64,000 nucleotides of DNA, taken from contig OZ220741.1 of assembly GCA_965116885.1 (NCBI GenBank), positions 1,280,001 through 1,344,000 of the forward strand, in the 5' to 3' direction. The stretch's first letter is position 1; each line of letters starts with the position of its first letter. The stretch is from Candidatus Latescibacterota bacterium. GTDB lineage: Bacteria > Latescibacterota > UBA2968. Positions 19,871-57,300 of the stretch are shown one piece after another. Under the pieces are notes generated by a model. The model had not been told where the DNA came from. It was given only the letters and a program-made list of their open reading frames with translations, and made no database searches. The translations under genes and the position numbers were made by a program.

Positions 19871-19905
19871 ATATATAGTGTACAAAAAAAGTGTACACTA
19901 TATAT
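19871..19905. promoter_or_regulatory. Perfect 14-bp inverted repeat in the dnaA/rpmH divergent promoter region
   Basis: ATATATAGTGTACA-N7-TGTACACTATATAT. Confidence 0.55.
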
Positions 19906-20030
19906 AGTAGTGTAACCAGAGGACTGTCCTATCAAAATGAAATCCCTTGACAAAGCAGATATGCACCTCTATATTCCAAACTCTCTGTCGATATAGATAA
20001 TTGAAATTTTTGTAGATACGGAGTAGTTTG

Positions 20031-20165
20031 ATGAAACGCACGTTTCAACCACATAATCGCAAGCGCAAAAATAAACACGGTTTTCGCGCTCGCATGAGTT
20101 CTCCCGGTGGTCGCCATGTGCTGAATAGACGGCGCCGAAAGGGTCGCAGGCAGCTATCGCACTGA
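20031..20165 (+). CDS. rpmH: 50S ribosomal protein L34 (not in ORF track)
   Basis: Manual translation [44 protein letters not shown]. Confidence 0.97.
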
Positions 20166-20179
20166 TATGTAGGTGTGTT

Positions 20180-20509
20180 ATGGGAACACCCAACCTACGC
20201 ATTCGACGCGAAATTGCGAAAATTCGACAGCACGGTCAAATTTTTCGTGGGCGTTGGGTTCATGTTCGGATTGGTACTTCCGAGATGGATCTAACGCTCA
20301 TTTCAATTCGGAAAAAATTTGGAAACGCAGTTCGGCGCAATCGCATCCGCCGACAAGTACGAGCAATATGTTCCGAACTAATACCTTCAGGTCATCCTCA
20401 CTGTCTGATGAGTATCTCTATAGGAGATCACGCTTCCGGTGTCTCTTATGGCCAACTCCGTCTTGAACTACACCTCGCATTTCAAAAACTCGGTCTTATC
20501 GACCCCTGA
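20180..20509 (+). CDS. rnpA: Ribonuclease P protein component
   Basis: KKFGNAVRRNRIRR RNR motif; follows rpmH. Confidence 0.9.
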   Translation: MGTPNLRIRREIAKIRQHGQIFRGRWVHVRIGTSEMDLTLISIRKKFGNAVRRNRIRRQVRAICSELIPSGHPHCLMSISIGDHASGVSYGQLRLELHLAFQKLGLIDP

Positions 20510-20562
20510 TTCGTTTTTGCAATCCCTTCCTTTATTATTCTCTGTTTAGAAAGACTGAATTT

Positions 20563-22254: not shown

Positions 22255-22266
22255 CAGGTTATTTCT

Positions 22267-23613: not shown

Positions 23614-23636
23614 TGTTGAACTGGGATACGACCAGT
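23613..23636. repeat. Left arm of 24-bp perfect inverted repeat flanking rsmG
   Basis: ATGTTGAACTGGGATACGACCAGT is the exact reverse complement of 24513-24536. Confidence 0.85.
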
Positions 23637-23643
23637 GGTAAAA

Positions 23644-23659
23644 TGTTCCACGTGAAACA
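23644..23659. other. parS centromere site
   Basis: TGTTCCACGTGAAACA matches the TGTTNCACGTGAAACA consensus. Confidence 0.9.
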
Positions 23660-23754
23660 TCGGTGAGACGTGAAACGTAAGAGGGGTTGGGCGGTCGTCT
23701 CACCTTTTACGTCTTACGTCTTACTTCTTACCGCCTTTTCTAAAGGTATATTCA

Positions 23755-24393
23755 ATGGAACCAGATGAAGCCATTGAGCTTGCGGAGAGATCCTTTGGCC
23801 TTTCTTTTTCCAATAAACAGGTCGTGTTGCTCAAGCAATATGTCGATTTGCTTACCGATTGGTCGGGTCGCGTTCGATTGATCTCCCGCAATGATCGCAA
23901 TTTTATATGGGAACGTCATATTCTCGATTGTCTCTCGCTGGTACCGCACCTTCCAGGAAATGGACCTCTCCTGGATTTGGGATCAGGTGCTGGTCTGCCG
24001 GGTATTGTGATCAAGATTATGAGGTCCGATCTCGAAGTTTATCTCCTTGAACCCACCCGCATGAAAAACCTCTTTCTCCAGGAAGCTATTACCGCGCTCG
24101 GCCTTCAAAGTGCTTTCGCTATCAGATATCGCGCTGAGCACCTTGTTGAAGATTCCTCGTTCGCTGGTAAATTTCTGATTGGTACAGCCCGTGCAGTTGC
24201 ACGACTGCCCCAACTTTGGAATTGGACAGAACCTTTTCTCGCCTCTCAGGGAGTACTTATTTCAATGAAAGGCCCAGATTCTCTCTGCGAGTTCACAGGC
24301 GGTGTTCCACGCGATATCTATGCTACTGAAACCTCTTTGACCTTACCCATTACACGACGAAGACGGTCTTTTGTCTTTCTTAAAAGACGTTGA
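23755..24393 (+). CDS. rsmG: 16S rRNA m7G527 methyltransferase RsmG
   Basis: RHILDCL, LDLGSGAGLPGI, ARAVA. Confidence 0.92.
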   Translation: MEPDEAIELAERSFGLSFSNKQVVLLKQYVDLLTDWSGRVRLISRNDRNFIWERHILDCLSLVPHLPGNGPLLDLGSGAGLPGIVIKIMRSDLEVYLLEPTRMKNLFLQEAITALGLQSAFAIRYRAEHLVEDSSFAGKFLIGTARAVARLPQLWNWTEPFLASQGVLISMKGPDSLCEFTGGVPRDIYATETSLTLPITRRRRSFVFLKRR

Positions 24394-33225: not shown

Positions 33226-33401
33226 TTTCTTTATTCGGTTAATTTCGATCAGGCCTTCCGGCAATATGAAATGACAAATGACAGGTGTCATTGCGGCATG
33301 ATTTTAGCCGCAATCCAGCTATCATTTTTAAAAAGAGTAAAACGCTTTGGTGTTATGCCAGAGCGTTTTTGTTTTCTGTTTACAAAGTTGACGATTCAGT
33401 A

Positions 33402-35153
33402 CTATTGGATACGTGCCTTAATTTCCTTCCAAATTACGTTTGCCCGTGCCTTAAGGTACTCCTCATATCGGTCCTTAACCGTCCCGTTATCCTCTATAAG
33501 TTCGTCATAAGGGACAAAATGGGACTCAATACGGTTCTTCAACTGCTCATCCGTTAGCTGATCATTCTTTTTTATATCGTCCAAGTACAATGCAGGTTCT
33601 TTTCCGCCCAGTATGATGTTGGTGGATTTTCCAATCAGGACAGTATTGAGACCATGATTGATGAGATCAGAACCAACTATTCCACCGTCCACCAGCACCT
33701 TTCGTGGAAATACATGATGTTTGTCAAGTTGCTTTTCTTGCTCTAAATCTCTGATTTGGCCAAGTGTCAATCGTACTTCCGTAATCCAATCCAAGGAACG
33801 ACCATTATCGATGGTAAGGGCTATAATAGCCTTACCAGAAGAAGATGATCTTCCAATAGGCTTATTCTGATTACATAAGTCTTTCTCTCCAATCACCTGC
33901 GTGTCCTTAAATATGCGCGCATTTCTTTTTATTTTTTTTCCCTCTTTTATATCTTTAAGATTTTCTCGAAGATCTTTGAAGTCTTCGTATAAACTATCGT
34001 TCGCCTGTTTTTCATAGCGGTCTGAAAAGAAAGACCACCAAAGATACTTAGTTAGAAGTTTTCTAGCTGCTGCCTTATTAATTGTATGAATACTATCAAA
34101 TTCGTCGTATAAAGCGGCGATTACATAGACGGGTGGCATACGTGGAAGTATGCCTTTAGTTGGAACGCCGTTGTCTTCCAAAAACTGTAGTGTAGTGTCA
34201 AGATTAGACTCGACCATATCCGCGTTCTCTGTTCCGGTAATAAAAAGATAATCCAGTGCCTTGCGAAAGTTGTTGTCCTTGGGGGGCAGACCACCCTTCA
34301 AACACGCAATCTTCAATAGGCAATCGCCTATCTCTGGAATCCAGCGTTCTTTATCATTATAAAAGTAGTGTTTAATCCTATCACGCTCTTCGTGGAATCG
34401 CTGAATGCGTTCTCTCAGTTTAATGTCTGTTCTAATATCCAGTGCTTGTGCAACAGCTAAGTCAAATGCCGTAACTATGACTGACGAACTGTTTGTTTGA
34501 ACAAAAATAGAGGCAGCCTCATCAACACCAATCCCTTTGAACTTGGCGAACCAGATTTTGTACTCTTCCAGTGGTGTTTTTAATTCATTTTCTATAGAAC
34601 GTCGCAGATCTCCAGCACTTGAGGAATCTTTGGGTATGGCCTTTTCGCACCACTCTTCTACACCAGACTTTGAGTCGTGGGCTGGCGGGTCATAGAGAAT
34701 ACTCACGGGGATTACGTTGTCCGAGAACTCGTCTTGCGGATTAATATCTTCCTCAGAACTCTCTGGTCGATGTATCACCTCTTTTATTTTCATATTCTCG
34801 TTTTGCAAATCTTTAACTTTTATGTAAAATCGTCTTTTACCTTCCCCCATAAGTCCTTGCCAGAGTGATGTTAGCCGCTGTTGACCGTCCAAGATAAGAT
34901 TTTTGGCGTTCTCTATGTAGACGTCATTGCCTTGTATTTCTCGCTTACCGAATTCAGGTCCCGATTCGACCAGCAATATGGTCCCTGTTGTTTGTCCTCG
35001 AAGGACAGCTTTCAGAAAGCGTGCTGTTCGCATGTCGTCCCAGACGCGACTCCGCTGGAAATCGGTGAGGGCGAGTTCGCCCTCCGCCATTTCGTCCATC
35101 CAGTCTTTGACCGTCTTGTCTGTATAGTCTGGATTCATCATAGTGTTCTCCAA
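33402..35153 (-). CDS. GmrSD/SspE-like protein: DUF262 NTPase domain plus C-terminal HNH-like nuclease
   Basis: DFQRSRVW, LILDGQQRLTSL, F..TN; C-terminal DKHHVFP...N...N. Confidence 0.85.
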   Translation of the reverse strand: MENTMMNPDYTDKTVKDWMDEMAEGELALTDFQRSRVWDDMRTARFLKAVLRGQTTGTILLVESGPEFGKREIQGNDVYIENAKNLILDGQQRLTSLWQGLMGEGKRRFYIKVKDLQNENMKIKEVIHRPESSEEDINPQDEFSDNVIPVSILYDPPAHDSKSGVEEWCEKAIPKDSSSAGDLRRSIENELKTPLEEYKIWFAKFKGIGVDEAASIFVQTNSSSVIVTAFDLAVAQALDIRTDIKLRERIQRFHEERDRIKHYFYNDKERWIPEIGDCLLKIACLKGGLPPKDNNFRKALDYLFITGTENADMVESNLDTTLQFLEDNGVPTKGILPRMPPVYVIAALYDEFDSIHTINKAAARKLLTKYLWWSFFSDRYEKQANDSLYEDFKDLRENLKDIKEGKKIKRNARIFKDTQVIGEKDLCNQNKPIGRSSSSGKAIIALTIDNGRSLDWITEVRLTLGQIRDLEQEKQLDKHHVFPRKVLVDGGIVGSDLINHGLNTVLIGKSTNIILGGKEPALYLDDIKKNDQLTDEQLKNRIESHFVPYDELIEDNGTVKDRYEEYLKARANVIWKEIKARIQ

Positions 35154-36013
35154 ATACGATTAAGCAGATCGTCTACCAGTTCGCCAATCTCTTCGAACTC
35201 CAAGACGCCAATCTCTCTGGACGCAGCGATGTTGCTGAATCGGCGCAGTACTTTTGTCAATCTGCTGGCAGTTCGTAAAGGCGTTTTTGGTTTCGCCTTA
35301 AAGTGCTTCGCCAAGCTGTTGACGAAAGCGTCCTGTACATCTACTGATCCAAACACTGATCCTCTGGACACAATCATAGTGACCAGATTTTCCCAGTATT
35401 GCTGATTGGTTCGAACAACATCCAATAATGCTGCCCTATCCTCGACACCATCCCGTTTAAGGATCCGGGCAACTATTCGTTCCCGCCACCATGCACGTCC
35501 GAATGAAGGATTCACAAAGACGCTTTTGTTCCCACGTGCCCCAGGCAATCCGCTCATTCGTCTGATTACAGTTCTTACACAGTCATCAATGCCCTTAGCA
35601 TCCTGAGTAACAAGAGCTCGGTCAATTCTCTCGTCTCCACCCTCAGTCCTCCCTCCATTCGCTGCAAGCCAGTACGGTTCAATCCCATCTGATCTAATGT
35701 GTTGCAACGTGACTCCAGCCCAAAAGGAAATCCGGCAAGCTATCCTTGGAGGTACGTGAGACCATATTTCATACGCCGCTTGTTCCTGGTCTCTGGTCAG
35801 ATCCTTAAAAGATTGTTCAGTAAGGGGACCGGGAAATAGCTCCACGATTTCACCAGAAGTTTTGGAAACTTCTTTATCCATGAAGGACAAAAAATCTTCG
35901 CTGTCTTTCACTGCAACGAGGAAGTCACGCTGGTAGTCACTACCTTTTTCGGACAGCAGATTTTTATGCAGACGGGTGAATTCACCTTCATTGAGTTCCG
36001 CATAATTAGTCAT
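35138..36013 (-). CDS. Uncharacterised protein (DUF6339-like by recalled pattern)
   Basis: Coupled ORF in operon; FWAGVTL and GRAWW motifs; family call unverified. Confidence 0.55.
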   Translation of the reverse strand: MTNYAELNEGEFTRLHKNLLSEKGSDYQRDFLVAVKDSEDFLSFMDKEVSKTSGEIVELFPGPLTEQSFKDLTRDQEQAAYEIWSHVPPRIACRISFWAGVTLQHIRSDGIEPYWLAANGGRTEGGDERIDRALVTQDAKGIDDCVRTVIRRMSGLPGARGNKSVFVNPSFGRAWWRERIVARILKRDGVEDRAALLDVVRTNQQYWENLVTMIVSRGSVFGSVDVQDAFVNSLAKHFKAKPKTPLRTASRLTKVLRRFSNIAASREIGVLEFEEIGELVDDLLNRIWRTL

Positions 36014-36015
36014 CT

Positions 36016-36876
36016 TTATTCTATGTCTCCATCGGTAACTTTATGTGGATAAAGAGTCGTTGCTACGAATTCTGGATCAAAGTCAGCATTTGCCCAGTGT
36101 CCCAATTCTTTTGATTCCAGTGATTCTGTGAGCGCACGTAAATTGGGATAAGACTCCCACCCTTCTTCTCCATCGTCCTTGGCAAAATCCTTTTTCAAAT
36201 GGGCAAGAGCAGCTGAGACAATATGTGTCATGATATTCGCGCGTGATGTCTCTTGTCTGTGATGTTGTAGTTGGGCAAACAAATTTTGGGAAAGATAAAC
36301 CTTGAACTTGAAACCATCCAAGCTACTTGGTTCAACTTTGAACACACCGGATTCATAGTCTTCCCTCGGGCAGAAGTCCAGGAGTCCAAGGACACCGGAT
36401 TTTAGTGCGAATGTTGAACAGACCGCTACCCTCGAACCCTTTGGCAGTTGTAATGTCTTGCCGTTCCAGAGTGGGTTCACACCATCTGTTTCTGCATCAA
36501 TAGTGTGTTCGATGTCAGAGCCACTCACGATCATCGGGGTGAACAGAGGGTGTGCGCCGAGATCGTCAGGGTCCCATTCAATCATTTGCATCGGCACATC
36601 AGAAACATGGAGTTCTCTATATGCAGAGACAGGTGCTGCCACCGAGCAAACAAAACGAACCTTACCTGTATGGATCCAGTTTGTAATCAACCCTGCACCC
36701 TCAACTTCATGAGTCAGTGAAAATGACCGGCCCGGCTCTTTGTGTTCCAAACTAACCGAATAGACACCATTCTCAAAGCTACTGTTTCCCGCCTCCAAAA
36801 CAGGCCAAGAAAAGGCACGAGTCGCTGATGCCGGATCCGATGTCCGAATACTAATTTGCATTGCCATTTGAGGCAT
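36016..36876 (-). CDS. Uncharacterised protein of the defence-like operon
   Basis: 286-aa ORF overlapping the upstream ATPase gene; N-terminal WPVL motif, beta-rich N-half, helical C-terminus. Confidence 0.7.
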   Translation of the reverse strand: MPQMAMQISIRTSDPASATRAFSWPVLEAGNSSFENGVYSVSLEHKEPGRSFSLTHEVEGAGLITNWIHTGKVRFVCSVAAPVSAYRELHVSDVPMQMIEWDPDDLGAHPLFTPMIVSGSDIEHTIDAETDGVNPLWNGKTLQLPKGSRVAVCSTFALKSGVLGLLDFCPREDYESGVFKVEPSSLDGFKFKVYLSQNLFAQLQHHRQETSRANIMTHIVSAALAHLKKDFAKDDGEEGWESYPNLRALTESLESKELGHWANADFDPEFVATTLYPHKVTDGDIE

Positions 36877-38869
36877 TCCTTTCGCTTATAGATTGAGGTC
36901 GATGCAAATCTACTCTAAGCACGGGAATATCTACCGCGTTTTCGATATCTTCTGGCAGTTCGTATTCGACCACTAATTCATAATTTATCCCTGCCGATAG
37001 TCCGTGTATTCGTATAGACCTTCCATCGTCTTCCAACTTCCCGCTTGGTTCTGGTGTCCCGTTTGTGTTAAATTTAAACGATTTAAGTAGCACATTTTCA
37101 TCTGTCCAAATCCGATCACAGGTCGCATCTATGTTTTCGTCGATACGCAAAGTCAGATCCACTTCGTCAAATGATTCAATACACTCTAACGAAATGATAT
37201 GTTTCCCAGCACCATCAGGGATGACCGTTGAACGAAATGGTAGCGGACGAGATCTTGTTTGGCTATTCTTGCTGCTACTCTTTTTGTTATTTCCGCCTTT
37301 GTTCCCCTTGCCATCTCCTTCAGGTTCGTCTTTTTCTCCGTTTGGCGTAAATTGTCTTTGGCTAATACGCGGACGTTGAACCACAACGGGCGTACCCCAC
37401 ATCGAAAACTGTTCTGTGCCGGAACCGTTGCTGTTGCCCCCGGTTGCTACCCAGAGATAATCGTCTGGTGTGTATTCCTCAGTCCCGATTTCAGGTATTT
37501 GATCTCTGATTTTATCCGCAATTTGTTGTATTGCCGCTTTTAAGCGTTCTTTTTCTTCTCGTGACAAACGGCTGAATGCGAGTTCATCGTGCATTGGCCC
37601 TTCAGCATTGCGGACAAGGCGGTGCAAGTTTTTGCCTTCTTTCGCATTTAATGCCAGAACTGCGTGAAATGGCTGTCGGTTGGTAAAGTCTGCCCGACTC
37701 AAGCCTTGGATATAGTCGGTGATCCACATGCCATTGCGGAAAAGGTCAACACGAGTGTTTTCTGTTGGCGAGGGTATGAGCAATCTGACATCTACATCTC
37801 CCTCTTTAGTGTGGACCAGGAGCCGTTCTCCCTGTAGCGTCTGATAAGCTGAGTAGGCGTTTTGTCCAGATGGCCTAAGTCCTTCAAAAAAAGAGCCTTT
37901 TCTGTCCGCCCGAACGCGGTCCTTGCTTTGCTCCAAGACATCACTAAGGGTATCTTTGTTAAGTCGCTGGATGCCGCGTTTTTTATTTTTTTTATGTTTC
38001 TCCTCCACCTCTACGACGAGGTGCCCTTGAAAGATGGCGGCATTGAAGTTATAAGCCGCAACCCTTGACACGATATCCCAAAGCGATAAATCGTTATCAT
38101 CGCCGAAGTAGTTGAATGCAGGGATCACAACGATAGAGCCATGTCCCCACTTAGATTTAATTTTTCTTAGATCCGCGGCAATTCCTTTAGGGATATATCT
38201 ATCACTTATAAAGTTGTAAATTTTGCCATCTTTCCCACTCCCAAATCCTTTGACGAGATAGCCTTGTGCTGCATACGGAAGTTTCTTACCCGAACGACTC
38301 GCTAATACCGCGCATCCTGAAACGGTGCGTTGACCGCTTTTCAAAACTCCTCCATAAAGCACATATCGGAGAGCAGATGCAGGTATTGATGCAAGATGCC
38401 CAACCCCATAGGAACCGGATGCCTCTGTAGATTTGGCACTCGCCCCTTGGCCAAGTAGCGAAGTCATTCTCTTCTCGTCGAGACCGATCCCATTATCAAG
38501 AATCGACAAGGAATAGTGCTTATTTTTTTTCAGCCGATCCAGTGCATCTTCAATGTTATTGACCACTTGTTGCGCCGCGTCGGATAACTCACCGTTCCCT
38601 TTGTGATCTTCGACTGCTGCTCTAAAGTGTTCCTCATATCCTTCAATGTCAGGGATGTCGCTTCTACCGATTTTAGTAACTCGAAATCGAACAACCGCTG
38701 TCTTCTCACCTGCCTCTACTGCGGCGTCCAAAGAGTTTTGAATAAGTTCTCTGACGATTCGAGATGGACGAAGGTCGTTAAACGATGCCGTGTCGAGTCC
38801 GGTGAATCCCGTCATTGATGTCGTCGAACCAAATTTTAGTTTTGGACCTCTTCTTTGTCTGCGTTTCAA
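36851..38869 (-). CDS. GHKL/HATPase-like ATPase domain protein
   Basis: N box RELIQNSLDA, G1 box DNGIGL, G2 box GSYGVG; TTG start 3 nt after the desulfurase stop. Confidence 0.8.
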   Translation of the reverse strand: MKRRQRRGPKLKFGSTTSMTGFTGLDTASFNDLRPSRIVRELIQNSLDAAVEAGEKTAVVRFRVTKIGRSDIPDIEGYEEHFRAAVEDHKGNGELSDAAQQVVNNIEDALDRLKKNKHYSLSILDNGIGLDEKRMTSLLGQGASAKSTEASGSYGVGHLASIPASALRYVLYGGVLKSGQRTVSGCAVLASRSGKKLPYAAQGYLVKGFGSGKDGKIYNFISDRYIPKGIAADLRKIKSKWGHGSIVVIPAFNYFGDDNDLSLWDIVSRVAAYNFNAAIFQGHLVVEVEEKHKKNKKRGIQRLNKDTLSDVLEQSKDRVRADRKGSFFEGLRPSGQNAYSAYQTLQGERLLVHTKEGDVDVRLLIPSPTENTRVDLFRNGMWITDYIQGLSRADFTNRQPFHAVLALNAKEGKNLHRLVRNAEGPMHDELAFSRLSREEKERLKAAIQQIADKIRDQIPEIGTEEYTPDDYLWVATGGNSNGSGTEQFSMWGTPVVVQRPRISQRQFTPNGEKDEPEGDGKGNKGGNNKKSSSKNSQTRSRPLPFRSTVIPDGAGKHIISLECIESFDEVDLTLRIDENIDATCDRIWTDENVLLKSFKFNTNGTPEPSGKLEDDGRSIRIHGLSAGINYELVVEYELPEDIENAVDIPVLRVDLHRPQSISERNASNGNAN

Positions 38870-38871
38870 TT

Positions 38872-40023
38872 TTAGGCTCCTATCATAGTTTTAAGCGCAC
38901 GGCACAGTATCTGACTCGCCGTGTCAACTTGTTCTTGTGTCGTGAAGCGCCCCATGCTAATCCGAACACCACTGGAAGCGATTTCTGGACCAACGCCAAG
39001 TGCCATCAGTACGTGGGATGGCTTCGCTGAACCCGTGGAACAAGCGGCTCCCGTCGAGATGGCAACCTTATCCGAGACCACATCTACAAGATGTTCTGCC
39101 AGTATTCCGGGAATACCTATGTTCAGGTTCCCCGGAATACGGCGTTCCTTATGGCCGAATATCAACAAATCGGGAAAGTTTTTAGACATCTTCGATTGGA
39201 GACGTGCGGTTAGGCTACATAGATGCTGGGCATCCTTGTAATACTCGGCATCAGCAATCTCACATGCCTCACCGAGTCCAACCACAAGCGGAGTCGCAAC
39301 AGTCCCTGGGCGTATTCCACGTTCTTGTGATCCGCCCGTTAGAACAGGTTCTATACTCAGATCGGGACGATTGCGAATATACAACGCGCCGACTCCATTG
39401 GGACCATAGATTTTGTGCCCAGAGAGACTCAGCAAATCAACCCCCAGTTCGTCCACATCAACCTTGATCCGACCTACCGCCTGAGTAGCGTCTGTATGGA
39501 TAATTGCTCCGACAGCGCGACAGCGCGCGGAGATTTCAGTAAGTGGCTGAATGACGCCAATCTCATTGTTGGCCAGCATCACTGATACCAGCAACGTCTT
39601 GTCACTTAGCGCGTTTTCCAACACGGACAGATCAAGTAAACCATCATTCAGAACAGGTAGGATTTCGACATCAAACCCATGGCAGCCGAGCCATTGAACA
39701 GTATCCAAAACGGCCGGATGCTCCGTCGCCAGTGTGATGATTTGTCTGCGTTTGTTGGATGCTGCCGCAATTCCACGCAACGCAAGATTGCAAGATTCAG
39801 TAGCCCCGGAAACAAAAATAATCTCATTGTCATCCGAACCAATGAGATTAGCCACTTGGCTTCGTGCAAACTCAACAGCTTCTCGCGCTTCCCATCCAAA
39901 GGTATGCCCTTCGGAGTGGGGGTTGCCAAAAGTCTCTGTCCAATAGGAGGCCATAGCATCCCGCACGCGGGGATCCAATGGAGTCGTCGCTTGGTAGTCC
40001 AGGTAAATTGGCATCTTCGACAC
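38872..40023 (-). CDS. Cysteine desulfurase (IscS/DndA-like)
   Basis: YLDYQATTP, NNEIG, DATQAVG, SGHKIYGP (PLP Lys), STGAACS (catalytic Cys); 383 aa without the IscS C-terminal tail. Confidence 0.93.
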   Translation of the reverse strand: MSKMPIYLDYQATTPLDPRVRDAMASYWTETFGNPHSEGHTFGWEAREAVEFARSQVANLIGSDDNEIIFVSGATESCNLALRGIAAASNKRRQIITLATEHPAVLDTVQWLGCHGFDVEILPVLNDGLLDLSVLENALSDKTLLVSVMLANNEIGVIQPLTEISARCRAVGAIIHTDATQAVGRIKVDVDELGVDLLSLSGHKIYGPNGVGALYIRNRPDLSIEPVLTGGSQERGIRPGTVATPLVVGLGEACEIADAEYYKDAQHLCSLTARLQSKMSKNFPDLLIFGHKERRIPGNLNIGIPGILAEHLVDVVSDKVAISTGAACSTGSAKPSHVLMALGVGPEIASSGVRISMGRFTTQEQVDTASQILCRALKTMIGA

Positions 40024-40029
40024 GTTGTA

Positions 40030-41379
40030 TTACTCAGTGCAATCGCAAGGCAGAACAGTATTGGCAAAACGAGAAAGATCATCCCCTGTCTTGCTGCTGT
40101 CAGCTAAAATATCGTAGGAAAACTCACTCGATGCACCGAAGAACCCGATGAAACTTGTCGCGTCAGGGTTCTTCCGCTCTCGATTCTCAAGTTCCAGGTC
40201 TCGCCCGTACTTGTTTTCCATACTCGCCCACCAATCAATTGTGCATGGCGTATCAATAGTCGGCCCGAAGTCTCTAATCTCGCGCTCTTTTTGATTTTCC
40301 ATTGCTTCGTGTATTTGCGTCAGATTGCCAATGCCTTTGAGAAAACAATAGACACAATTAGAAAGTGCGCCATTTGGAGAGAGTTCCAAACCCCAACCTT
40401 GTTGTTGCCAAAAATCATTAACATCTTCTCGCCCTATGTGCATCTTTGTAAATGGCATATAGACGTGTTCACCTTCGTATCCTTTGTTCGCGTGAGGATT
40501 GGATGACCTGGATTCTACTCTGGCGACTCGCAGTTGTTCGTCTCCACGCAAACCAATGAAAGCAACATATTCAATACCCCCATCGCCGAACCACGCTTTC
40601 TGCCCGAATACTTTGTCCTTAAGCAATGCGTTTTCAAAGGGACTCGCTGGTGCAGAGAAGTCACGATAATACTGTTTCGGACGGCAGGTTGGTCGGCTCA
40701 ATACGAATCTTTTCTTTTGAAGAAGCACATCTTTAGGCACACCGCCCCCATTACGTATATGGCTTTTGTGCATTTGGTCAGTGTCAACCTGCGATTCTGG
40801 AAGCCCATGTCCCAAACGCGGGATGCTTTTCTTGCTTGCAAACCAGTCTCGGAGAAACTGACGGGTAATTTCCAGCTTGAGGGATAGTGTGCAAACGCGG
40901 GTAAACTGATTCGGCAAATATGCTTTGTTTGAAAGCATTTCCTCAAAAGCCTCACCGCGCCACTGGAAGCCATCCGGATTAGTCTCTGAGAAGGGATGCT
41001 CATTGACTAGGCGGTAGGAGGAGATGCGGCGCCATTCTCCCTGCCGTGCGTCTTCGTAGGTTTGGAATTGGATGAAGAAGAAGGGGATACCGGCTGCTTC
41101 TACGCGCTTTTTGCACTCAGCGGCGAACTTGTAAGTCTCAGGGTGTTCGCACGAAGTGTTGTTGAATACCACTACATCACCGCGCTCTTGCTTAAGAAAT
41201 CCATTTTCTAATAAGGTGAAAAGTAGCATGCCACTGGAACGTCCTCCAGAAAACTTAACGACATGCGGGAGTTCTTGGTGGTATTTGGAACGATAACGAA
41301 AGGAGTAGGTTTTATCAGGATCATAGTGTTTGGATTTTTGTAATTTTCTCGATATTGAGAGTTTAGGAATAGCCTGCAT
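40030..41379 (-). CDS. PAPS-reductase / PP-loop adenine nucleotide alpha-hydrolase family protein with Cys clusters
   Basis: PP-loop FSGGRSSG, FNNTSCEHPETY, RVCTLSLK, IGLRGDE, NCVYCFLK, C-terminal PCDC. Confidence 0.85.
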   Translation of the reverse strand: MQAIPKLSISRKLQKSKHYDPDKTYSFRYRSKYHQELPHVVKFSGGRSSGMLLFTLLENGFLKQERGDVVVFNNTSCEHPETYKFAAECKKRVEAAGIPFFFIQFQTYEDARQGEWRRISSYRLVNEHPFSETNPDGFQWRGEAFEEMLSNKAYLPNQFTRVCTLSLKLEITRQFLRDWFASKKSIPRLGHGLPESQVDTDQMHKSHIRNGGGVPKDVLLQKKRFVLSRPTCRPKQYYRDFSAPASPFENALLKDKVFGQKAWFGDGGIEYVAFIGLRGDEQLRVARVESRSSNPHANKGYEGEHVYMPFTKMHIGREDVNDFWQQQGWGLELSPNGALSNCVYCFLKGIGNLTQIHEAMENQKEREIRDFGPTIDTPCTIDWWASMENKYGRDLELENRERKNPDATSFIGFFGASSEFSYDILADSSKTGDDLSRFANTVLPCDCTE

Positions 41380-41694
41380 TTATGCCCCCTTCTGAGAAAA
41401 TAAAACATTGAAAATCAAATAATTTAGAAGATTTTCTGATGGCACGATAAGACCATCTTTTAATAAGCTAATACCCAAATTAAAATGGGTCAAGATAAAA
41501 ACGTTCACAACATTCGGCTAAAGTCAAGCACCCTCAAACATGCAATCCGTGCTGTTTGCCAAAAATTAGCACGGTTTTTGAGCTTGTAAATTACCTTCTG
41601 TTGTGGTTACTTAATGTTCTTGGCGAAGGCGCATAGGAAGGTATCAGTCAAATGGACGAAGGTATGGAGGAACTTACCAAGAAGGGGACTTGTA

Positions 41695-41943
41695 ATGGCG
41701 ACATATTCAGAGATTGTAGAATGGGTCTATCGGAAGTATAGGCTGAAGATACACAAACCTTGCTACATTGCCCATTGTAAGGAATTGGCCGATCTCAATC
41801 CGAGCAGGGCGCCGAATCGTAAGGGAAACGGGAGGGTGTACCATTGTCCAGATAAGTTGCGCGAGCCGATCTTTGAGGCGTTCAAACACTTTAGGATGAT
41901 TCCTGATGACACGCAAATCCGCTTACCTTGGGGTGATGATTGA
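41695..41943 (+). CDS. Small basic hypothetical protein
   Basis: ATYSEI..V..KY...YIAHCK...CP......I.EAFKHF.MI; resembles, from memory, the C-terminal extension of some RlmD-type methyltransferases; GGGG RBS. Confidence 0.65.
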   Translation: MATYSEIVEWVYRKYRLKIHKPCYIAHCKELADLNPSRAPNRKGNGRVYHCPDKLREPIFEAFKHFRMIPDDTQIRLPWGDD

Positions 41944-41989
41944 TACGAGCCATTTCACAATCAATATTGTATATAATCCCAAAAATAAT

Positions 41990-42018
41990 TTGACATTGCC
42001 GCTTATATAGGATAATTT
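41990..42018 (+). promoter_or_regulatory. Sigma70-like promoter
   Basis: TTGACA 41990-41995, 17-bp spacer, TAATTT 42013-42018 (GATAAT at 42011 is an alternative -10). Confidence 0.55.
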
Positions 42019-42088
42019 GTTCATTAACATGACCCATCGAACCGTCGCCCGTATAGGGAATTAACGTGTGTTCGATTATTTTTACCCC

Positions 42089-42118
42089 CAGGGACGCCAA
42101 GTGCGTCCCTGTTTTTTT
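42089..42118 (+). terminator. Intrinsic terminator immediately upstream of the NYN gene RBS
   Basis: CAGGGACGC-CAAGT-GCGTCCCTG followed by T7. Confidence 0.8.
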
Positions 42119-42128
42119 GGAGAATACT

Positions 42129-42758
42129 ATGTCAGAAGACAGTTTAGCCACCCCTCCACGCTACCGAGTAAGGATATTCGTGGACTTTTGGAACTTCACG
42201 CTTTCGATGCGAGACACAGAGCAAGATTTCAGTACTGACTGGAAAAAGCTTGGCCCCGTGCTAACTCGTGTAGCTACAGAAACTGTCAGCTACGAGGCAA
42301 TCGGCGAATATCAGGGTCTGAATTTTTACGGCTCGTACGATCCGGCAAGTGAGAATGAGAAAAAAATGTACCAGTGGGTGACAACTGTCGTAAGTACGTT
42401 TCCGGGGGTCAATGTTTCGATCGTTCCAAGACAGAAGAGACGTTCTCTGCCAAAGTGCCCAATTTGCTACAATGAAATCGAGAAATGTCCATCTTGCAAC
42501 GCTGACATGAGAGGCACAGAAGAAAAGGGCATAGATGTGCGTATGGCTACGGCGATGATAAGCCTTGCTTGGGAGGACAATTACGATATTGCTGTACTGA
42601 TTTCGTCAGACCGGGATTTCGTGCCGGTGGCTGAATTTCTGGAAACGAAAGGTATCAAGGTCGTGCATGGCGCGTTTCCTCGAAAAAGTGCCCAACTTAC
42701 CCAAAAATGCTGGGCCAGTATTAACCTTGCCGATATTCGGGAGGAATTCCGTTATTGA
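42129..42758 (+). CDS. NYN (PIN-like) domain RNase with inserted Zn ribbon
   Basis: IFVDFWNF, EKGIDV, ISSDRDFVP, GIKV; CPIC...CPSC insertion. Confidence 0.88.
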   Translation: MSEDSLATPPRYRVRIFVDFWNFTLSMRDTEQDFSTDWKKLGPVLTRVATETVSYEAIGEYQGLNFYGSYDPASENEKKMYQWVTTVVSTFPGVNVSIVPRQKRRSLPKCPICYNEIEKCPSCNADMRGTEEKGIDVRMATAMISLAWEDNYDIAVLISSDRDFVPVAEFLETKGIKVVHGAFPRKSAQLTQKCWASINLADIREEFRY

Positions 42759-42781
42759 AGGAGCGTATTTTATGAAAGCCT

Positions 42782-43024
42782 CTATTCCCGGAAATCTTCG
42801 AGCGGTTCGTCGAATTCATCGCTTATATGAACAAGCCCTTTGGCACTTCCAGGTCGCCGTCGTCGCTTTGTTGGATCTGTTGGTACAGTTGCATCCTGCT
42901 CAATAGCCACAAATTTGACTACGGGCTGATTGCGCTCTGTAATAATGATATTTTCGCCACGTCTGGCTCGCGCAACGAGTTCAGGGAACCGTTGCTGTGC
43001 TTGATCCAACTCAAAACAATTCAT
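42782..43024 (-). CDS. Phd/YefM-family antitoxin with DUF2281-like C-terminus
   Basis: AQQRFPELV.RARRGENIIITERNQPVVK and RRPGSAKG..HISDEFDEPLEDF. Confidence 0.82.
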   Translation of the reverse strand: MNCFELDQAQQRFPELVARARRGENIIITERNQPVVKFVAIEQDATVPTDPTKRRRRPGSAKGLVHISDEFDEPLEDFRE

Positions 43025-43131
43025 TACACAATCCTCCTTTTATATTCAAAATTACTATACCCAACCATAAAATTCAACCAATCGCTCATTGAGGGGTGTG
43101 CATATTGTCTGTGCGATGGTGGATTTAGATG

Positions 43132-51334: not shown

Positions 51335-54300
51335 CTATTGAATCCAGTAGTGCTGACGCTGGAATGGATAGCTCGGCAGCGAGATGCGGCGGCGCGTTTC
51401 TCCCGCAAATAGCCCGGGAAATGAGACCGAAAGTCCCGCTTCATACGCTTTTGCTACTGCTTCTATAAAACCGTTGTCTCCCAGACTCGACAATACAACG
51501 GGTGGATTCGCGTCGCCTTCTATCGGTCCCGGCACCGCGTTCGGGCCGATCTCGATGAGCACATTGACCCCCAGATTCACAAGCTTCTTCGCGCATTTGT
51601 CGAATGCCGTCGGTTCCTGAGGTTGCCGACGCCAATACGCCGCGTCGAGGACTTCGACGCCCCCTGTCACACTGCTCACAAGGACCAGAGATGGCGATGC
51701 GATTGTGACGTCTGTGAGGGTGGCTTCCAGATTGCCCGTATCCCATTCCAGTGCAACCCGCAATCCATCCTCCAGGCTAAAGACGCCCGCCGCTTGCGCC
51801 GCTGCAATTTCTCCTATACCGTGCCCGACCACCACGCTGGGCTGAATCCCCACGCTCGACCACAATGCCGTAAGCGCGGACTCCATTGCATAGATGGCTG
51901 GCAGGTCAGATAGATCGCCGGTCTGGCCGAACATCGCGTCCAGCAAGGAGGTGTTTCTCTCTTCCCGAAGTACTTTGTCGCAACGGTCCAGAACGGCTCG
52001 GACTACCGGCTCGCTTTCGTAGAGGTCTTTCCCCATGCCGATCCACTGGCTGCCCTGTCCGGTGTACGCAAAGGCGATTTTTGTCGTTGCGCGCAGTTCT
52101 GGTCTTTCTCCTATTTCTGAGAGTGCCTGTAGTTTTTCTCGCAGCGATTCGACATCCTGGAATACGATGCCCGCACGGTGATCGAAATGGCTGCGTCCCA
52201 CGCCCGCTGTCCACGCCATGTCGGCAAGCAGGTCCACATCTTCGGAGGCAAGCTCATTGATCCAGGACAGATAGCGTCCTGTCAGGTCTCGAAGTGCTTC
52301 ATCGGTTTTTCCCGATAGGGGCAGAAGCCGGGTCTGGCGCGGGGCGAACGCTTCTTCCTCGCCTATGAGATCTACCGACTGGGAAACGGGTTGTGCTGAT
52401 CCCACAGGCGTTGTATCCGGGCTGTCATATCCTTCTACGACAACATGGGCATTTGTCCCCGATATCCCGAAGGCGCTGACTCCCGCTCGCGGCGGGCGAT
52501 TGGGATGGCTGGGCCAGTCCGTCAGGGCTGATGCCACTTGCACTGGTAACCGGTTCCAGTCTATATGCGGACTCGGTTCCTCAAAGTGCAGGTGCTTTGG
52601 TATCTTCCCCTGTTTCATGGCGAGTACTGCCTTGATCAGGGCTGCAACGCCAGCAGCTGGCTCCAGGTGACCGATGTTTGTTTTTACGGAGCCGATCAAA
52701 AGCGGGCGGTCTGCTTCGCGGCCCTTGCCGTAAACAGCAGCCGCTGCCTGAATTTCGATCGGGTCTCCCAACTCCGACCCACCCCCGTGGGCTTCCAGAT
52801 AATCTACTTCTGATGGAACGATACCCGCTCGCGACAGTGCCTCTTCAATTACTCGCTCCTGCGCTGGCCCGTTTGGCACGGTTGGTCCCGCGCTGGCCCC
52901 GTTCTGGTTGACCGCAGACCCGCGGATCACGCCCCAGATGCGGTCGCCATCGGCTTCTGCCTCGCTCAGCCGTTTGAGGACGACCATCCCACAGCCCTCG
53001 CCGCGCGTGAAGCCATCCGCAGAGGCATCAAAGGGCCTGCTCTGTCCCTCTCGTGACAACATGCCCAGGTCCGCCATTTCTCTGGTTAAATCAGGTGACA
53101 GAACTGCGTGTGTCCCTCCAACCAGAGCCATATCTACTTCGCCCTGCCGCAATCCCATCACTGCCTGGTGTACCGCGACCAGTGATGACGCGCAGTTGAG
53201 TTCCACCGGTATCGTCGGTCCCTCCAGACCAAGGAGAAAAGAAATTCGCCCGACCGTCATGCTCGCGGCAGTGCCCAGATAACTGATGCCGTATTCGCTG
53301 GCTGTCATCAGGTCCCGGTATTCGCTGGTGGCGATGCCGGCGTATAGCCCAGTGCGGCTGCCTCTCAATACGTCTGGATCCATCCCCGCATCCTCAATCG
53401 CTTGCCAGGTCGTCTCCAGCATCATGCGTTGCCGCGGGTCCATCAGGCGCGCCTCAATCGGCGAAATCCGAAAGAATCTCGCGTCAAATTGATCAATGCC
53501 CTCAACAAATCCGCCCCGGCGATAAGCGGCGTATTTGGAGGGAAGGTCTTTGGCGAGATTGTTCCATGATCCGGGATCCTGGCGTCCGTCGGTCACCGCG
53601 TCCACTCCTGCTTCGAGCTGGTGCCAGAAGGTGGAAAGATCCGAAGCGCCGGGGAAGTGGCAGGCCATGCCCACGATCGCAATACCGTCATCCTCGCGCT
53701 GCACTATTGGTTCTGGTTCGGGTTGCACCTGAGGCTGAGGGGCGGGCGCATCGCTGACTTCGCCGAGTTCCTCGACCAGATGGCGGGCGAGACTGGCGAT
53801 GTCCGGGTAGTCAAATACCACGGTGTTGGGGACCACGTACTCATCGGCAAATGCCCGGTTCAGGCGATTCCGCAACTCTACCGCCATCAGCGAGTCCATC
53901 CCCAAATCGAAAAATCCCACTGTGGGTTCCGGCGCTGTCGGCAACCTCAGCACGGCCTGTACCTCCTGCTGCAGGAAGGATACAAGCAGGTCCTCGGGTG
54001 CCGCTGCAGGTGCCTCTCGCAGTTGGGAAAGCAGGTCCTTTGACGAGGCCGAGGCGTCGGCTTCGTCGTCCGCATCGGCGGACAGCAAGTCCTCCAGGAA
54101 GAGAGGACGATCTTCGACCGCCTCTTCGAACACCGACCAGTCCATCGACATCACCACGGAAGTCGTGGCGTCCTGACGCACCAGTTGATCGAATGCCCGG
54201 ATACCCTGCTGTGGGGTGAACCAGCGGCCGCCGAGCGCTGACCGCTGTTGGTCAATCCGCTCCCGCTGTTCCGCTGCTTCGCCGATCTCCGACCACGCTC

Positions 54301-57300
54301 CCCAGGCTATGGCCTGCCCGGGCAACCCCATCGCGCGGCGGTGCCCGGCGAGTTGATCCAGAAAAGCATTGGCTGAGGCGTGGTTTGCCTGGCCCGGATT
54401 GCCCATGACGCCAACCCGGCTCGAAAAGAGGACAAACATGTCCAGATCGCGATCCAAAGTCGCCCGATGCAGATGCCAGGCACCCAGTACCTTTGGCCAC
54501 AGAACGGTTTCGAATCGCTCCCAACTCTGGTTGGTCAGCGCGCCGTCCGACAGCACGCCCACGCTGTGGATCACGCCTCCGAGCGGCGGTAGCGTCTCAT
54601 CTATCCGCGCTATCATCTCATCTATTGCGACGGCATCCGTCACGTTTGCGATCTCTACCTGCACTTTCACACCGCGTTCCCGCAGCCTGTGGATCACCTC
54701 CTCAGCCTCGGGGTCCGGTGCCCGGCGTCCGTTTAGTGCTATTGCGCCCGCACCGCGATCCGCCAGCCAGTCTGCTACGGCGCATCCGATCCCACCCAGA
54801 CCACCCGTTACCAAATAGGTGCGGTCCTGTCGCAACTTGCCCTTCAGGATCGGTGGTGTCGTTACGACGATCTTTCCTATGTGCCGGGCGGCGCGCATGA
54901 AGCTCAACGCGGCGCCAGCTTCGGCGAGCGGCCACCTGCTGTGGGTGATTGTTTTCAGTTCTCCCGACGAAAGGCGCGCCATTACGTCCCGCAGGACTCT
55001 TCCCACCCACGCCGGGTCGGTTTTTTTCAGAACATCTAATTCCAGGATGTCGTAGGCCACGTCTGGACGCACAGCCGCCATCTCTTCCTCGCTCAAGATG
55101 TCCCGCCTGGCCAATTCCACGAATCGGCCGCCGTGCTTGAGGCAGGACAGGCTCGCGTCGATGAAGCCCTCTCCAGTGAGGCTGTTCAGCACCACATTGA
55201 TGCCCTCTCCATTTGTAGCTTCGAGAATCTCTTTTCCAAATGCTGTCTGGCGGCTGTCGAAGATGTGTTCCACGCCCAGTGATCGGAGATATGCCTGCTT
55301 TGGCGCGCTCGCGGTGGCAAAGACCTCCGCGCCCGCGGCTTGTACCAATTGGATTGCCGCCAATCCCACACCGCCCGAACCCGCGTGAATCAGTACCCGA
55401 TCGCCGGCCTCCAGTCCCGAGAGTTCGAAAGACAGTGCGGCGGATACGAATGCGCTCGGCACCGTGGCAAGTCCAGTGACCGAGAATCCCGATGGTGCGG
55501 GCGCCACCAACTCTTCTCGCGTGACCATTTGCGCCCCGAATGCCCCAAATCCCAATCCAACCACATGGTCGCCGACGGAAATGGTCGAGACATCGGAACC
55601 CACTTCGAGGATGTAACCGCACATCTCCCTGCCCAGATTCCCCTCCTCAATAAAGCCGAGTGAACGAAACACATCCCAGAAATTGAGCCCGGAGGCTTCG
55701 ACTGCGACGCGAACTTCGCGCGGTTCGAGAGAAGGTGCCGGTAGCGGCTGGACATACGGTCTCTCGAACACGCCGTCCGGATCCGGAGCCAGCACCCATT
55801 CCGACTCTTCCGGCAAGGTCAGGCGCTCTACTCCGGCGCCCATCCGAATCAGGCGGGCTACGCGGCGGGCATCCCCGCGGTACGCGATGTGATTCTCGGG
55901 ATCGGGATATAAGAGTTCATTGACGAGGTCGGGTGCCGGTGCCATCTCGCCGGGGTCCAGATCGATCATCCTCGGCTGTAGATGCGCCGCTTCTCGGGCT
56001 ACTGCTTTGCCGAAGCCCCAGAGTGCTGCGCCAGCGAGTTCTCCGCCTCGCTCTCGCTCCAACACCTGCGCTCCGCGCGTGATAAACCACACGCCCTTTT
56101 CAGGTGTCACATCGGAATCAGAGACGCCCTGTACCAATGCCAGTGCGCTCGCTCCCGCTCGTCGTACATCCTCCGCTATTTCTCCGGTCGTTGCCTCTGC
56201 CCCGTGACCATCCAGAGCCGCGAGATGCACAACGCCGCTGAGCGGCACATTGTCCGGCAGTTCCTTAAGGAGCGATCGCCACGACTCGCGTTGCTCCATA
56301 TCTATGGTTTTTCTGATAACTTCAGAGCCTTCCTCCACCTGCGGGTCATCGCTGCAGGCCAGCACGACCGTCTGGTTTTGCGCCGCGAGTTCTGCTGCGA
56401 GTTCTGCCGCCGCGCCTCCCTGGTCTGCAGCCAGAACCCACGCGCCTCCCTGCTCTGCCACCACCGCTGGCCCCTGCGCCACGATCACGCCCTTATCCAG
56501 CATCCTGGTGGAATCGGACTCATCTACTCCCAGGACTTCTACTTCCTCAAAGCCCACATTGCCGAGCGCCCCCCGCCACACCACAGGCCCGGCGAGGGCG
56601 TGGTGCGGGCGGAAACTGTCGGCAAATCGCCACCAGCCGTCCAACTGTCCGAAAGTCAGGTCCATCCAACCCAGACCGCGAAGGTTCTCGAGAGCAATTA
56701 ACTGTCCCGATGGCGCGAGAAGGTCACGACAGTGCGCGAGCGTTTCCTCTAGGTATCGCGTGGCGTGTAGCACATTAGACGCGATCAGCAAGTCATAACC
56801 ATGGGCGTCAAAGCCCTGGGCGATCGGGTCCTTCTCGATATCCAACGGACGGTACTCGATGCACCCTCCGCCATCGCCGAATCGCGCCTCGGCTTCTGCA
56901 AAGAAGCCCGCAGAAATATCCGTGTACATGTAGTCGAATCGTCCTTCCGGAAGTTCTGGCAATACGGACGCGGTCGCCGATCCCGTACCCGCTCCGACCT
57001 CGATCACTCTGAGGCGTCGTCCCTCTGGCAACGCGGCTACGAGTGCTCGCACCGCGTCTCCCAGCATACGGTTCGCCGCTCGCGCCACGGGTGCTTTCAG
57101 ATATAGATCGGCCGCGGTCGGTTCTCCGCTACTAAACAGAAGTGTCAGCGGATCCTCGTGACCGCGAAGCACCTCGGCCAGAGCGCTACCAGATCGCCGA
57201 AACAGCCCGATCTCGGTCAAGCCGTGCGGGTATAGCCCGGTCATCCGGGTGGCAAATTCCTCAAGATCTCCAGGCATTTCTTTCGGCAATGGATCCTCGG

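Follow-up and report, generated by a model that had tools for sequence, protein, structure and literature searches.

What is the function of a PP-loop protein that is encoded directly upstream of a cysteine desulfurase, at the head of an operon that also specifies a GHKL ATPase? This question is raised by a gene on contig OZ220741.1 of assembly GCA_965116885.1, from a Candidatus Latescibacterota bacterium, of which we analysed positions 1,280,001 to 1,344,000 (64,000 nucleotides, hereafter the window, numbered from its first letter). The gene, here called P (40030..41379, minus strand), begins with ATG and encodes a divergent SspD-like protein of 449 residues with the PP-loop ATP-pyrophosphatase fold. 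It opens a series of six genes, P-A-G-B-D-E, which follow one another in tandem on the minus strand and either overlap or are separated by a few bases: A encodes a cysteine desulfurase, G the GHKL ATPase that together with B and D forms a trio, and E a GmrSD-family protein. To our knowledge, phosphorothioation (PT) is the only natural modification of the DNA backbone, and all of the described PT writers that we know of (Dnd, Ssp, BREX type 4 and Tdp) use an enzyme resembling phosphoadenosine phosphosulfate (PAPS) reductase. We read the locus most readily as a cassette for DNA sulfur modification that is Ssp-like but has not been described, located in a variable insertion hotspot. We propose, with moderate confidence, that P, a divergent SspD-like protein, is a PP-loop sulfurtransferase whose most likely substrate is DNA; the modification is probably phosphorothioation, the replacement of a non-bridging phosphate oxygen by sulfur. 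The analysis itself shows the fold of P, its homology to SspD, the conservation of the operon, the fusions and neighbours that are linked to DNA, and the location in a mobile island.

Conserved motifs and predicted fold of P

The translation of P contains, in order, the PP-loop SGGRSSG (residues 44-50, nt 41230-41250), RVCTLSLK (residues 161-168, with RVCT at nt 40888-40899), IGLRGDE (residues 275-281), NCVYCFLK (residues 341-348, nt 40336-40359) and, followed only by TE and the stop codon, a terminal PCDC (residues 444-447, nt 40039-40050), all encoded on the minus strand. On the same strand, an insert of ~80 residues (residues ~185-268, nt ~40576-40827) lies between LK(L)E and GLRGDE. A preliminary description of the gene had drawn attention to SGGRSSG, RVCT, NCVYC and PCDC, as well as to a long insert between RVCTLSLK and IGLRGDE. 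These motifs were confirmed in the translation and proved to be invariant in an alignment of 39 homologues (32-80% identity), and the insert has no counterpart in SspD or in two phage NinC-like proteins. In the N-terminal part of the alignment, the invariant residues included S44, G45, G46, R47, S49, R161, C163, T164 and K168; in the rest, they included G276, R278, E281, N341, C342, C345, K348, C445 and C447. The five invariant cysteines (C163, C342, C345, C445 and C447) would be compatible, as judged from sequence, with a 4Fe-4S cluster.

A motif census of 244 P-family members in total gave the same picture. Among 120 close database matches, SGGR[ST]S was found in 116, R.CT in 120, NC..C[FPH].K in 120 and the terminal C.C in 118; among 60 members of at least 380 aa from the window and metagenomes, the corresponding numbers were 59, 55, 55 and 53. 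The conservation of the motifs is family-wide and not due to chance. Relatives of P formed 1360 clusters in a search of a protein collection clustered at 90%, the best 120 of which covered P end to end at 68-80% identity, and a HMMER scan of 50% representatives detected 910 relatives at E ≤ 1e-3 and 139 at E ≤ 1e-30. Few of the sources are named; they include Gemmatimonadetes, Chloroflexi and Gammaproteobacteria, and nearly all of the relatives are annotated 'hypothetical protein'. Conservation thus reaches 70-80% identity between proteins assigned, by their source names, to different phyla.

The AlphaFold2 model of P was of high quality by its own scores (predicted local distance difference test, pLDDT, 91.1; predicted template modelling score, pTM, 0.92) and contained a second, smaller insert, a long beta-hairpin at residues ~100-140. 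Structural alignment of this model identified 2oq2 as the top solved match (Z 11.3, root-mean-square deviation 3.7, 200 residues aligned), together with other reductases of PAPS or adenosine phosphosulfate (APS), namely 7rge (Z 10.4) and 6vpu, 2goy and 1sur (Z 10.1); the reductases as a group aligned over 184-200 residues of P with Z 10-11.3. Next came the Fe-S tRNA thiolases NcsA (Z 9.5-9.6) and TtuA (Z 8.9-9.4), and GMP synthetase and TilS likewise matched (Z ~9-9.5). Going by the model, P is a predicted PP-loop ATP pyrophosphatase of the PAPS-reductase branch, with a shared core of ~200 of its 449 residues.

Searches of PDB sequences with P alone or with its family profile returned nothing relevant, and Foldseek against the PDB gave no match at E ≤ 1e-3 for P, nor for D. 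Chain C of PDB entry 21fy ('PptA', 270 aa) was matched by the SspD profile (8.2e-11); it was not matched by the P profile and was absent from the fold lists of P, and the literature search found nothing relevant on it. This protein may be the nearest solved structure to the superfamily of P. Its own motifs are SCGAPS where the others have SGGxxS, EEHPD, which resembles CEHPE of P, and NNNCVGC.

Relationship of P to SspD, DndC, CysH and phage proteins

Reference sequences for comparison were drawn from related genomes, DndC by TIGR03183, SspD by the PADLOC model and CysH by PF01507. In profile-profile alignments, P paired with SspD at a probability of 98.7% (E 2.8e-16, 184 columns), with DndC at 50.9% (E 1.6e-4, 152 columns) and with CysH at 0.5% (hhalign; E 0.11, 43 columns). 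As a yardstick, DndC paired with SspD at 96.9% (E 1.7e-10, 119 columns) and with CysH at 81.1% (E 1.2e-5, 98 columns). By this measure, SspD appears to be the closest characterised relative of P, in a pairing stronger than that between DndC and SspD; the preliminary description had named SspD merely as a comparator. The alignment of P with SspD matches SGGRSS to SGGRDS, LPNxxxRxCTxxLKL to LPSxxxRWCTRQLKL, GLRxDE to IRADEE and SNCxxCF to SGCTFCF. Since SspD itself has SGGRDS, the earlier use of SGGR as a distinguishing feature of P's subfamily did not hold up.

The likeness extends to the cysteine pair CLAC at the C-terminus of SspD (cf. the terminal PCDC of P) and to the gene neighbourhood, with an SspA-like desulfurase beside P (PADLOC SspA 3.5e-145), albeit at only 14 of the 75 P loci described below, and a DUF262-type protein, E, ending the operon in the position that SspE occupies. 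In contrast, SspD has only ~280 aa and neither of the two inserts of P (residues ~100-140 and ~185-268), and E has no match to any SspE model. In addition, SspB is a DUF4007 protein and SspC an AAA+ ATPase, whereas the partners of P are a GHKL ATPase and two proteins of no known function.

The preliminary description had held that P is not a canonical DndC or CysH and had called for a phylogeny. In a quick tree computed with IQ-TREE from 51 rows (29 P-family, 8 SspD, 7 DndC and 2 phage sequences, with 5 CysH sequences as outgroup), each group came out as one clade, with support by the SH-like approximate likelihood ratio test (SH-aLRT) of 93 for P, 100 for SspD, 99 for DndC and 98 for the phage proteins; the order among the clades was left unresolved. 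P thus lay in a clade of its own outside the DndC and the APS/PAPS reductase clades, in agreement with the earlier view. The DndC model TIGR03183 had no matches at E 1e-3 in the genome from which the window comes (its cut-off was passed in 7 of 61 related genomes), and the Pfam model PAPS_reduct stayed below its cut-off. Other library scores of P were stray NCBIfam matches to PRK13795 and a PADLOC match to BrxP (1e-5); among the relatives, the BrxP model gave CysH cross-matches only, so no BrxP reference was entered.

P shares with DndC the PP-loop fold family, an RWCT-type motif, a desulfurase as co-worker (DndA) and a place in a patchy DNA-modification island. DndC carries a 4Fe-4S centre on three cysteines plus a cysteine dyad, according to the accessible part of PMC10853773, and the 3+2 pattern of cysteines in P resembles this arrangement. 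The two differ in the loop itself, which reads SGGKDS in DndC and SGGRSS in P.

With the APS/PAPS reductases (CysH), P shares the fold, at the Z scores of 10-11.3 given above. The cysteine positions of P also resemble what we take to be the CC...CxxC cluster site of APS reductase, and the reactive cysteine of the reductases presumably lies on a C-terminal tail likewise. P differs from CysH in having no sequence-level membership, twice the length and another gene context. These comparisons bear on the reading that P is a sulfate-assimilation enzyme, either an APS/PAPS reductase or a sulfurylase subunit, which the ranking of its best fold matches would favour. This reading is effectively refuted, as the PAPS_reduct match is confined to the PP-loop in addition to falling below cut-off, the profile of P and that of CysH barely pair (0.5%), a regular CysH is encoded elsewhere in the genome (PF01507 1.4e-46), Pfam and NCBIfam scans found no sulfate-assimilation genes in the operon, and just 2 of the 21 genus genomes contain the P family.

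Phage relatives of P were also found. The PHROGs family phrog_424 ('PAPS reductase') matched P at 7.5e-30 over two stretches, and tblastn recovered two phage relatives, from Burkholderia phage vB_E436 and from Microcystis phage Mae-JY30 (a 'NinC-like' protein). These proteins are 31-35% identical to P and carry FSGGRTSG, YLPNxxxRxCT, G(I/L)RxDE, GNCDLCFLK, WWxxME and C-terminal cysteines, a set even closer to that of P than the motifs of SspD are. They differ from P in having ~280 aa, in lacking the ~80-aa insert, in forming a separate clade (SH-aLRT 98) and in being encoded among phage genes for replication and recombination rather than alongside G-B-D or a desulfurase. Elsewhere among viruses, BFVD yielded 3 structural matches to P at E ≤ 1e-3, the 2.9 million viral contigs of IMG/VR contained only 3 remote relatives (24-29% identity), and the 67 phage records that matched P were all below 60% identity, with none covering at least 80% of P. 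No relative of G was found in the viral contigs, no match for P or G in plasmids, and no phage genes around the operon in the window. The preliminary description had called the motif set typical of phage proteins; NinC-like proteins do carry it, but the P family is cellular and its phage relatives are remote.

A conserved cassette with links to DNA

A total of 82 loci were compared, comprising 80 metagenome loci collected with the P family profile, the window and a locus from a same-genus genome (L001). After open reading frames (ORFs) had been called and clustered, P was present at 75 of them. At these 75 loci, G was found at 60, B at 51, D at 50, A at 14 and E at 7. The complete set P+G+B+D was present at 45, in the order P-(A)-G-B-D or G-B-D-P-(A), and 10 of these complete cassettes included the desulfurase. 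P was accompanied by part of the trio at 13 loci, mostly cut at contig ends, and stood alone at 17, just one of which (with a partial P of 310 aa) had at least 5 kb on both sides. The same-genus locus L001 contained the same six genes in an order identical to that of the window; one in-frame TGA was reported within its G match (G018:C1:3076328-3078292). When G was taken as the starting point, 4 of 168 genomes of the phylum were found to have G, and in all four P was ~1.2 kb away. Because P+G+B+D recurs at 45 of 75 loci and every G gene of the phylum stands beside P, the conserved unit is P plus the GHKL trio.

This result modifies the earlier emphasis on a dedicated desulfurase. A does lie directly downstream of P in the window, as the preliminary description had stated, but it is present at only 14 of the 75 loci, and the conserved partner is the trio. 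In the available text of PMC10853773, only 32% of Dnd taxa are credited with DndA, and the patchy occurrence of a desulfurase is therefore usual in systems of this type. At 13 loci (e.g. L031:346-558), a conserved gene of no family encoding ~71 aa was located directly upstream of P; it is confined to one P clade with the order P-G-B-D and no desulfurase.

The trio also invites a different division of labour, namely a two-module restriction-modification system in which P, with A or IscS, is the sole writer and G-B-D, which corresponds to the PADLOC system PDC-M33, is a reader and effector acting against unmarked or foreign DNA. Such a system would depart from our proposal in the role of the trio only, and we regard it as doubtful. 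PADLOC lists the trio by itself as a candidate defence system, P occurs as a trio-less methylase fusion in a context typical of orphan protective modification enzymes (see below), and in 36 of the 45 complete cassettes the available stretch contains no E and no PbeA-family gene. There is also a precedent for PT synthesis by a single gene, in that tdpC alone suffices in the portion of PMC12914056 that was accessible. However, with the exception of TdpC, the known PT writers depend on an ATPase and a DNA-binding partner, as far as the accessible parts of PMC10853773 and PMC12914056 extend. Pfam, NCBIfam, PADLOC, profile and fold searches of G, B and D revealed no domain of a nuclease or of any other effector. 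Furthermore, homologues of G (712 clusters) are not commoner than those of P (1360 clusters in the same database), and all 4 G genes of the phylum lie beside P.

Several fusions and neighbours connect the family to DNA. At L056 and L064, the P domain carries a complete C5 cytosine DNA methylase as an N-terminal fusion (PF00145 2.2e-76), and the same fusion was seen in 3 of the 6 long database representatives examined; in the tree, the fusions nest within the P clade. The fusion at L056 (L056:289-9550) stands without G-B-D and has ParB_N, topoisomerase III and DUF3577 as neighbours, a context that looks like a conjugative element (similar to integrative and conjugative elements, ICEs) and suggests a protective 'orphan' modification enzyme. 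Three further gene families follow the cassette at L005, L006, L007, L013 and L045; scoring on L006 and L045 showed that they encode a helix-turn-helix (HTH) protein and homologues of PbeA (4.2e-150) and PbeC (2.6e-42). The Pbe genes first became known as the restriction component of a phosphorothioation system. An N6/N4 DNA methylase gene adjoins the cassette at L071-L074, and E at its 7 loci is GmrSD-like. The C5-methylase fusions, together with the PbeA/PbeC-like and GmrSD-like neighbours, suggest DNA as the target.

Whether the base or the backbone of DNA is modified was considered separately. P might act on a base, with adenylation of a base carbonyl leading to a thio-base or to attack by another nucleophile, as in ThiI, MnmA, TtcA and TilS, and with the trio or the fused methylase presenting a flipped base. 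Members of the GmrSD family are known chiefly for reading modified bases, which would suit this possibility, as would the base-flipping nature of the C5 cytosine methylase that is the N-terminal fusion partner and the fold scores of the Fe-S tRNA base thiolases NcsA and TtuA, which are within ~1-2 Z of those of the PAPS reductases. We know of no thio-base in bacterial DNA, however, and the closest characterised relative of P by sequence, SspD, is a backbone phosphorothioation enzyme. A GmrSD-like system, GrwAB, recognises 7-deazaguanine-modified DNA in the accessible section of PMC12137116, which again favours a base. The PbeA/PbeC-like neighbours, as a module first described with PT systems, speak for the backbone; this is a weak point, in that Pbe modules pair with cytosine methylases too, according to the part of PMC10853773 at hand. 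On balance, we consider a base target clearly unlikely.

A role for P in the thiolation of tRNA or rRNA, or in making a sulfur-containing small molecule, with only an incidental link to defence genes, is very improbable. The fold is common to tRNA thiolases, the SspD profile weakly matches MnmA (6.6e-4), and tRNA thiolation just as typically involves a desulfurase partner. None of this would account for the fusion of P to DNA methylases, for Pbe, GmrSD and DNA methylase genes as neighbours, or for the obligate linkage of P to a GHKL ATPase of the DNA-clamp kind. The patchy, island-like spread of P (2 of 21 genus genomes, with an empty site in 8 relatives) is likewise unlike that of a housekeeping RNA modifier.

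Proposed mechanism and genomic setting

The five genes downstream of P could be classified to different depths. A (38872..40023, minus strand, 383 aa) starts 7 nt downstream of P and encodes a class-V pyridoxal phosphate-dependent cysteine desulfurase of the IscS/NifS/DndA/SspA type (Pfam Aminotran_5 9.3e-86; PADLOC SspA as above and DndA 3.9e-145); the NCBIfam models for IscS, NifS and DndA all match, all below their equivalog cut-offs. G (36851..38869, minus strand, 672 aa) is a GHKL (Bergerat-fold) ATPase of the PADLOC PDC-M33A type (1.3e-36), with a match to HATPase_c_3 below cut-off (6.7e-5) and weak PDB profile matches to Hsp90, MORC, Top6B and MutL. Its ATP-binding motifs are intact, with invariant E41..Q44 N45..D48, D125 N126 G127 x G129 and G152 SY G155 x G157 H158. 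B (36016..36876, minus strand, 286 aa), which overlaps the end of G by 26 nt, is of the PDC-M33B type (2.8e-9) and has invariant P25, Y39 and H56; it had no Pfam, NCBIfam or PDB match, and the ESM Atlas gave unnamed clusters only. D (35138..36013, minus strand, 291 aa) is an all-alpha protein of the DUF6339/PDC-M33C type, DUF6339 being detected in 8 of 24 family members (best 1.1e-8) and PDC-M33C in 3 of 24 (best 3.4e-8); the D of the window itself falls below every PDC-M33C model. The AlphaFold2 model of D (pLDDT 93.5) is all-helical with no convincing solved fold relative (best Z 6.5, over the last 100 residues only), and W98, R147, R160 and W176 are invariant. A lead from the ESM Atlas towards a GAP1-type protein was weak (scores ≤ 0.91, low recognition) and was not relied on.

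The trio therefore resembles the PADLOC candidate PDC-M33, in that G and B correspond to its A and B components in adjacent genes and the D family to its C component (3 of 24 members). It differs from PDC-M33 as modelled, which has neither a PP-loop enzyme nor a desulfurase and is a candidate without tested function. The last gene, E (33402..35153, minus strand, 583 aa), overlaps the end of D by 16 nt and is of the GmrSD family with an N-terminal DUF262 domain (Pfam GmrSD_N 1.1e-15; weak match to BrxU, 7p9k, 2.7e-4; PADLOC PDC-M55C and HEC-05). Its C-terminal part contains the motif DKHHVFP...N, which we take to be the His-Me finger of DUF1524, and E is likely a modification-sensing nuclease.

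The view of P as an Fe-S-dependent nucleic-acid thiolase acting through adenylation, put forward in the preliminary description, is consistent with its fold, its five invariant cysteines and its gene context. Our inferences concern ATP use, an Fe-S cluster, sulfur transfer, DNA as the substrate, the kind of mark and what each member of the trio does; they run as follows. A would take sulfur off cysteine as a persulfide, and a housekeeping IscS-type enzyme would substitute where A is missing. P would bind ATP at the SGGRSS loop and activate the target oxygen by adenylation, with sulfur delivered through its invariant cysteines. C163, C342 and C345 would be located where enzymes of the APS reductase and DndC types hold their Fe-S cluster, and the terminal C445-x-C447, on a flexible tail like the catalytic tail cysteine of PAPS reductase, could serve as a cysteine dyad or provide a fourth cluster ligand. 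G, with B and D, would bring P to DNA, as DndD/DndE or SspB/SspC do, or might read the mark, and E would be an add-on nuclease analogous to SspE. A complex of B, D and P (residues 27-449) was predicted with a median score of 0.52 (runs 0.06, 0.75 and 0.52; best control 0.00, contact agreement at least 81%, partner pLDDT at least 79). For calibration, 157 solved complexes and 215 mismatched pairs were available, of which 116 and 2, respectively, attained the mark; at scores ≤ 0.60, it was attained by only 18 of the solved complexes and by both mismatches. The prediction was thus graded as weak support, and we did not count it as evidence.

A number of observations weigh against our proposal of an SspD-like DNA sulfurtransferase. 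At the level of single models, the PADLOC SspD model scored P at 4.2e-9 with no single stretch passing, and did not match P at 1e-3 when run over the genome of the window. Pfam PAPS_reduct (PF01507) reached only 18.9 bits with P, over residues 39-95 (the PP-loop), where the cut-off is 22.5; P scored 19.4 bits in the genome search with the same model. None of G, B and D matched SspB, SspC or DUF4007, and no operon protein matched DndD (an ABC ATPase) or DndE, the partners of DndC, in Pfam, NCBIfam and PADLOC. PADLOC models the PDC-M33 trio A-B-C without P, which fits the trio as an independent effector and not as a helper of P. The methylase fusion could equally indicate a base as the target, not the backbone. 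The full cysteine set is also not universal in the P family, as one clade (L047, L049, L050 and L053) lacks RxCT and the terminal CxC and retains G-B-D; these proteins may work without the presumed Fe-S site. The P genes of this clade encode 384-385 aa with SGGR[ST]S and NCxxCFLK retained, in G-B-D-P operons adjoining rimP. PMC12914056, in the part accessible, calls PT systems by a PAPS-reductase domain plus a P-loop NTPase, a rule that the P cassette fails because its partners are not SspB/SspC or DndD/DndE. The same part of that source mentions an isolate with a PAPS-reductase gene beside an ATPase in which PT was undetectable.

The newness of the locus lies in the writer clade and in the partners of a proposed Ssp/Dnd-like DNA sulfur-modification cassette. 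In the full-text literature searched, with subscription journals and supplements outside its scope, we found no PAPS-reductase-like enzyme joined to a GHKL ATPase, DUF6339 or PDC-M33, and the accessible parts of PMC12839542, PMC10853773, PMC12914056, PMC12137116 and PMC2292703 do not cover the P family or its pairing with a GHKL ATPase. More tentatively than the proposal for P itself, we suggest that P-(A)-G-B-D could constitute a further, undescribed class of DNA sulfur modification. Such a class would combine an SspD-like writer bearing two family-specific inserts, a GHKL clamp ATPase in place of an SMC-like or AAA+ ATPase, two proteins with no recognised solved fold (D having been folded and searched, B searched by sequence only), mobility across many phyla, and interchangeable GmrSD-like or Pbe-like readers. 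In a bolder form, the mark of the cassette would be a new sulfur-containing DNA modification and not the known Rp phosphorothioate.

The operon locus is a variable insertion hotspot. In the window, 9907 bp (33226-43131) separate a sulfatase gene, which ends at 33225, from nupC, which starts at 43132. Among 18 same-genus genomes with both flanking genes on one contig, 8 have a gap of 57-126 bp and the remaining 10 a gap of 0.6-6.7 kb. In the sole cassette-bearing relative (G018), this site is empty and the copy is located elsewhere. A search for repeats showed no flanking repeats at the island ends, and no integrase was seen there. Of 20 relatives within the genus, 6 have DndC, 10 have strong SspD-like matches and 1 has the P family (2 of 21 with the genome of the window), a distribution that fits interchangeable systems of one functional kind. 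A hairpin of 14 pairs flanked by A and T runs (33339..33369), between the convergent sulfatase gene and E, might terminate transcription in both directions where the operon ends; a consensus scan of the region gave 14 terminator-like sites against 9.1 +/- 3.5 in shuffles, so this call is weak. A scan for promoters detected 9 sites, below the 13.1 of the shuffles.

Between the operon and nupC, the window also contains a 109-aa ORF of no family (41614-41943, plus strand), a gene for an NYN-domain protein (42066-42758, plus strand; 4.2e-14) and a Phd/YefM-like antitoxin fragment just below cut-off (42782-43024, minus strand), for which no toxin partner was called. The genes dnaA, yidC, mnmE and rsmG (gidB) lie at 18123-24393, 9-22 kb from the near end of the operon, and the island is thus close to the likely replication-origin region. 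Further along, a single ORF of 3354 aa (51335-61399, minus strand) occupies a region with a G+C content of 56-63%, compared with 45-52% in the 16-48 kb part that contains the operon.

The P family matches no curated model, so its members are annotated as hypothetical and escape surveys that rely on DndC or SspD plus a P-loop NTPase. Should P write PT or another sulfur mark, censuses of PT epigenetics would be incomplete, notably for marine and symbiont communities. The PADLOC candidate PDC-M33 would gain a mechanistic handle, and the GHKL ATPase would join the SMC-like and AAA+ ATPases as a motor of DNA-modification machines. The recurrent C5-methylase-P fusions, finally, offer a simple two-domain form of the system for biochemistry.

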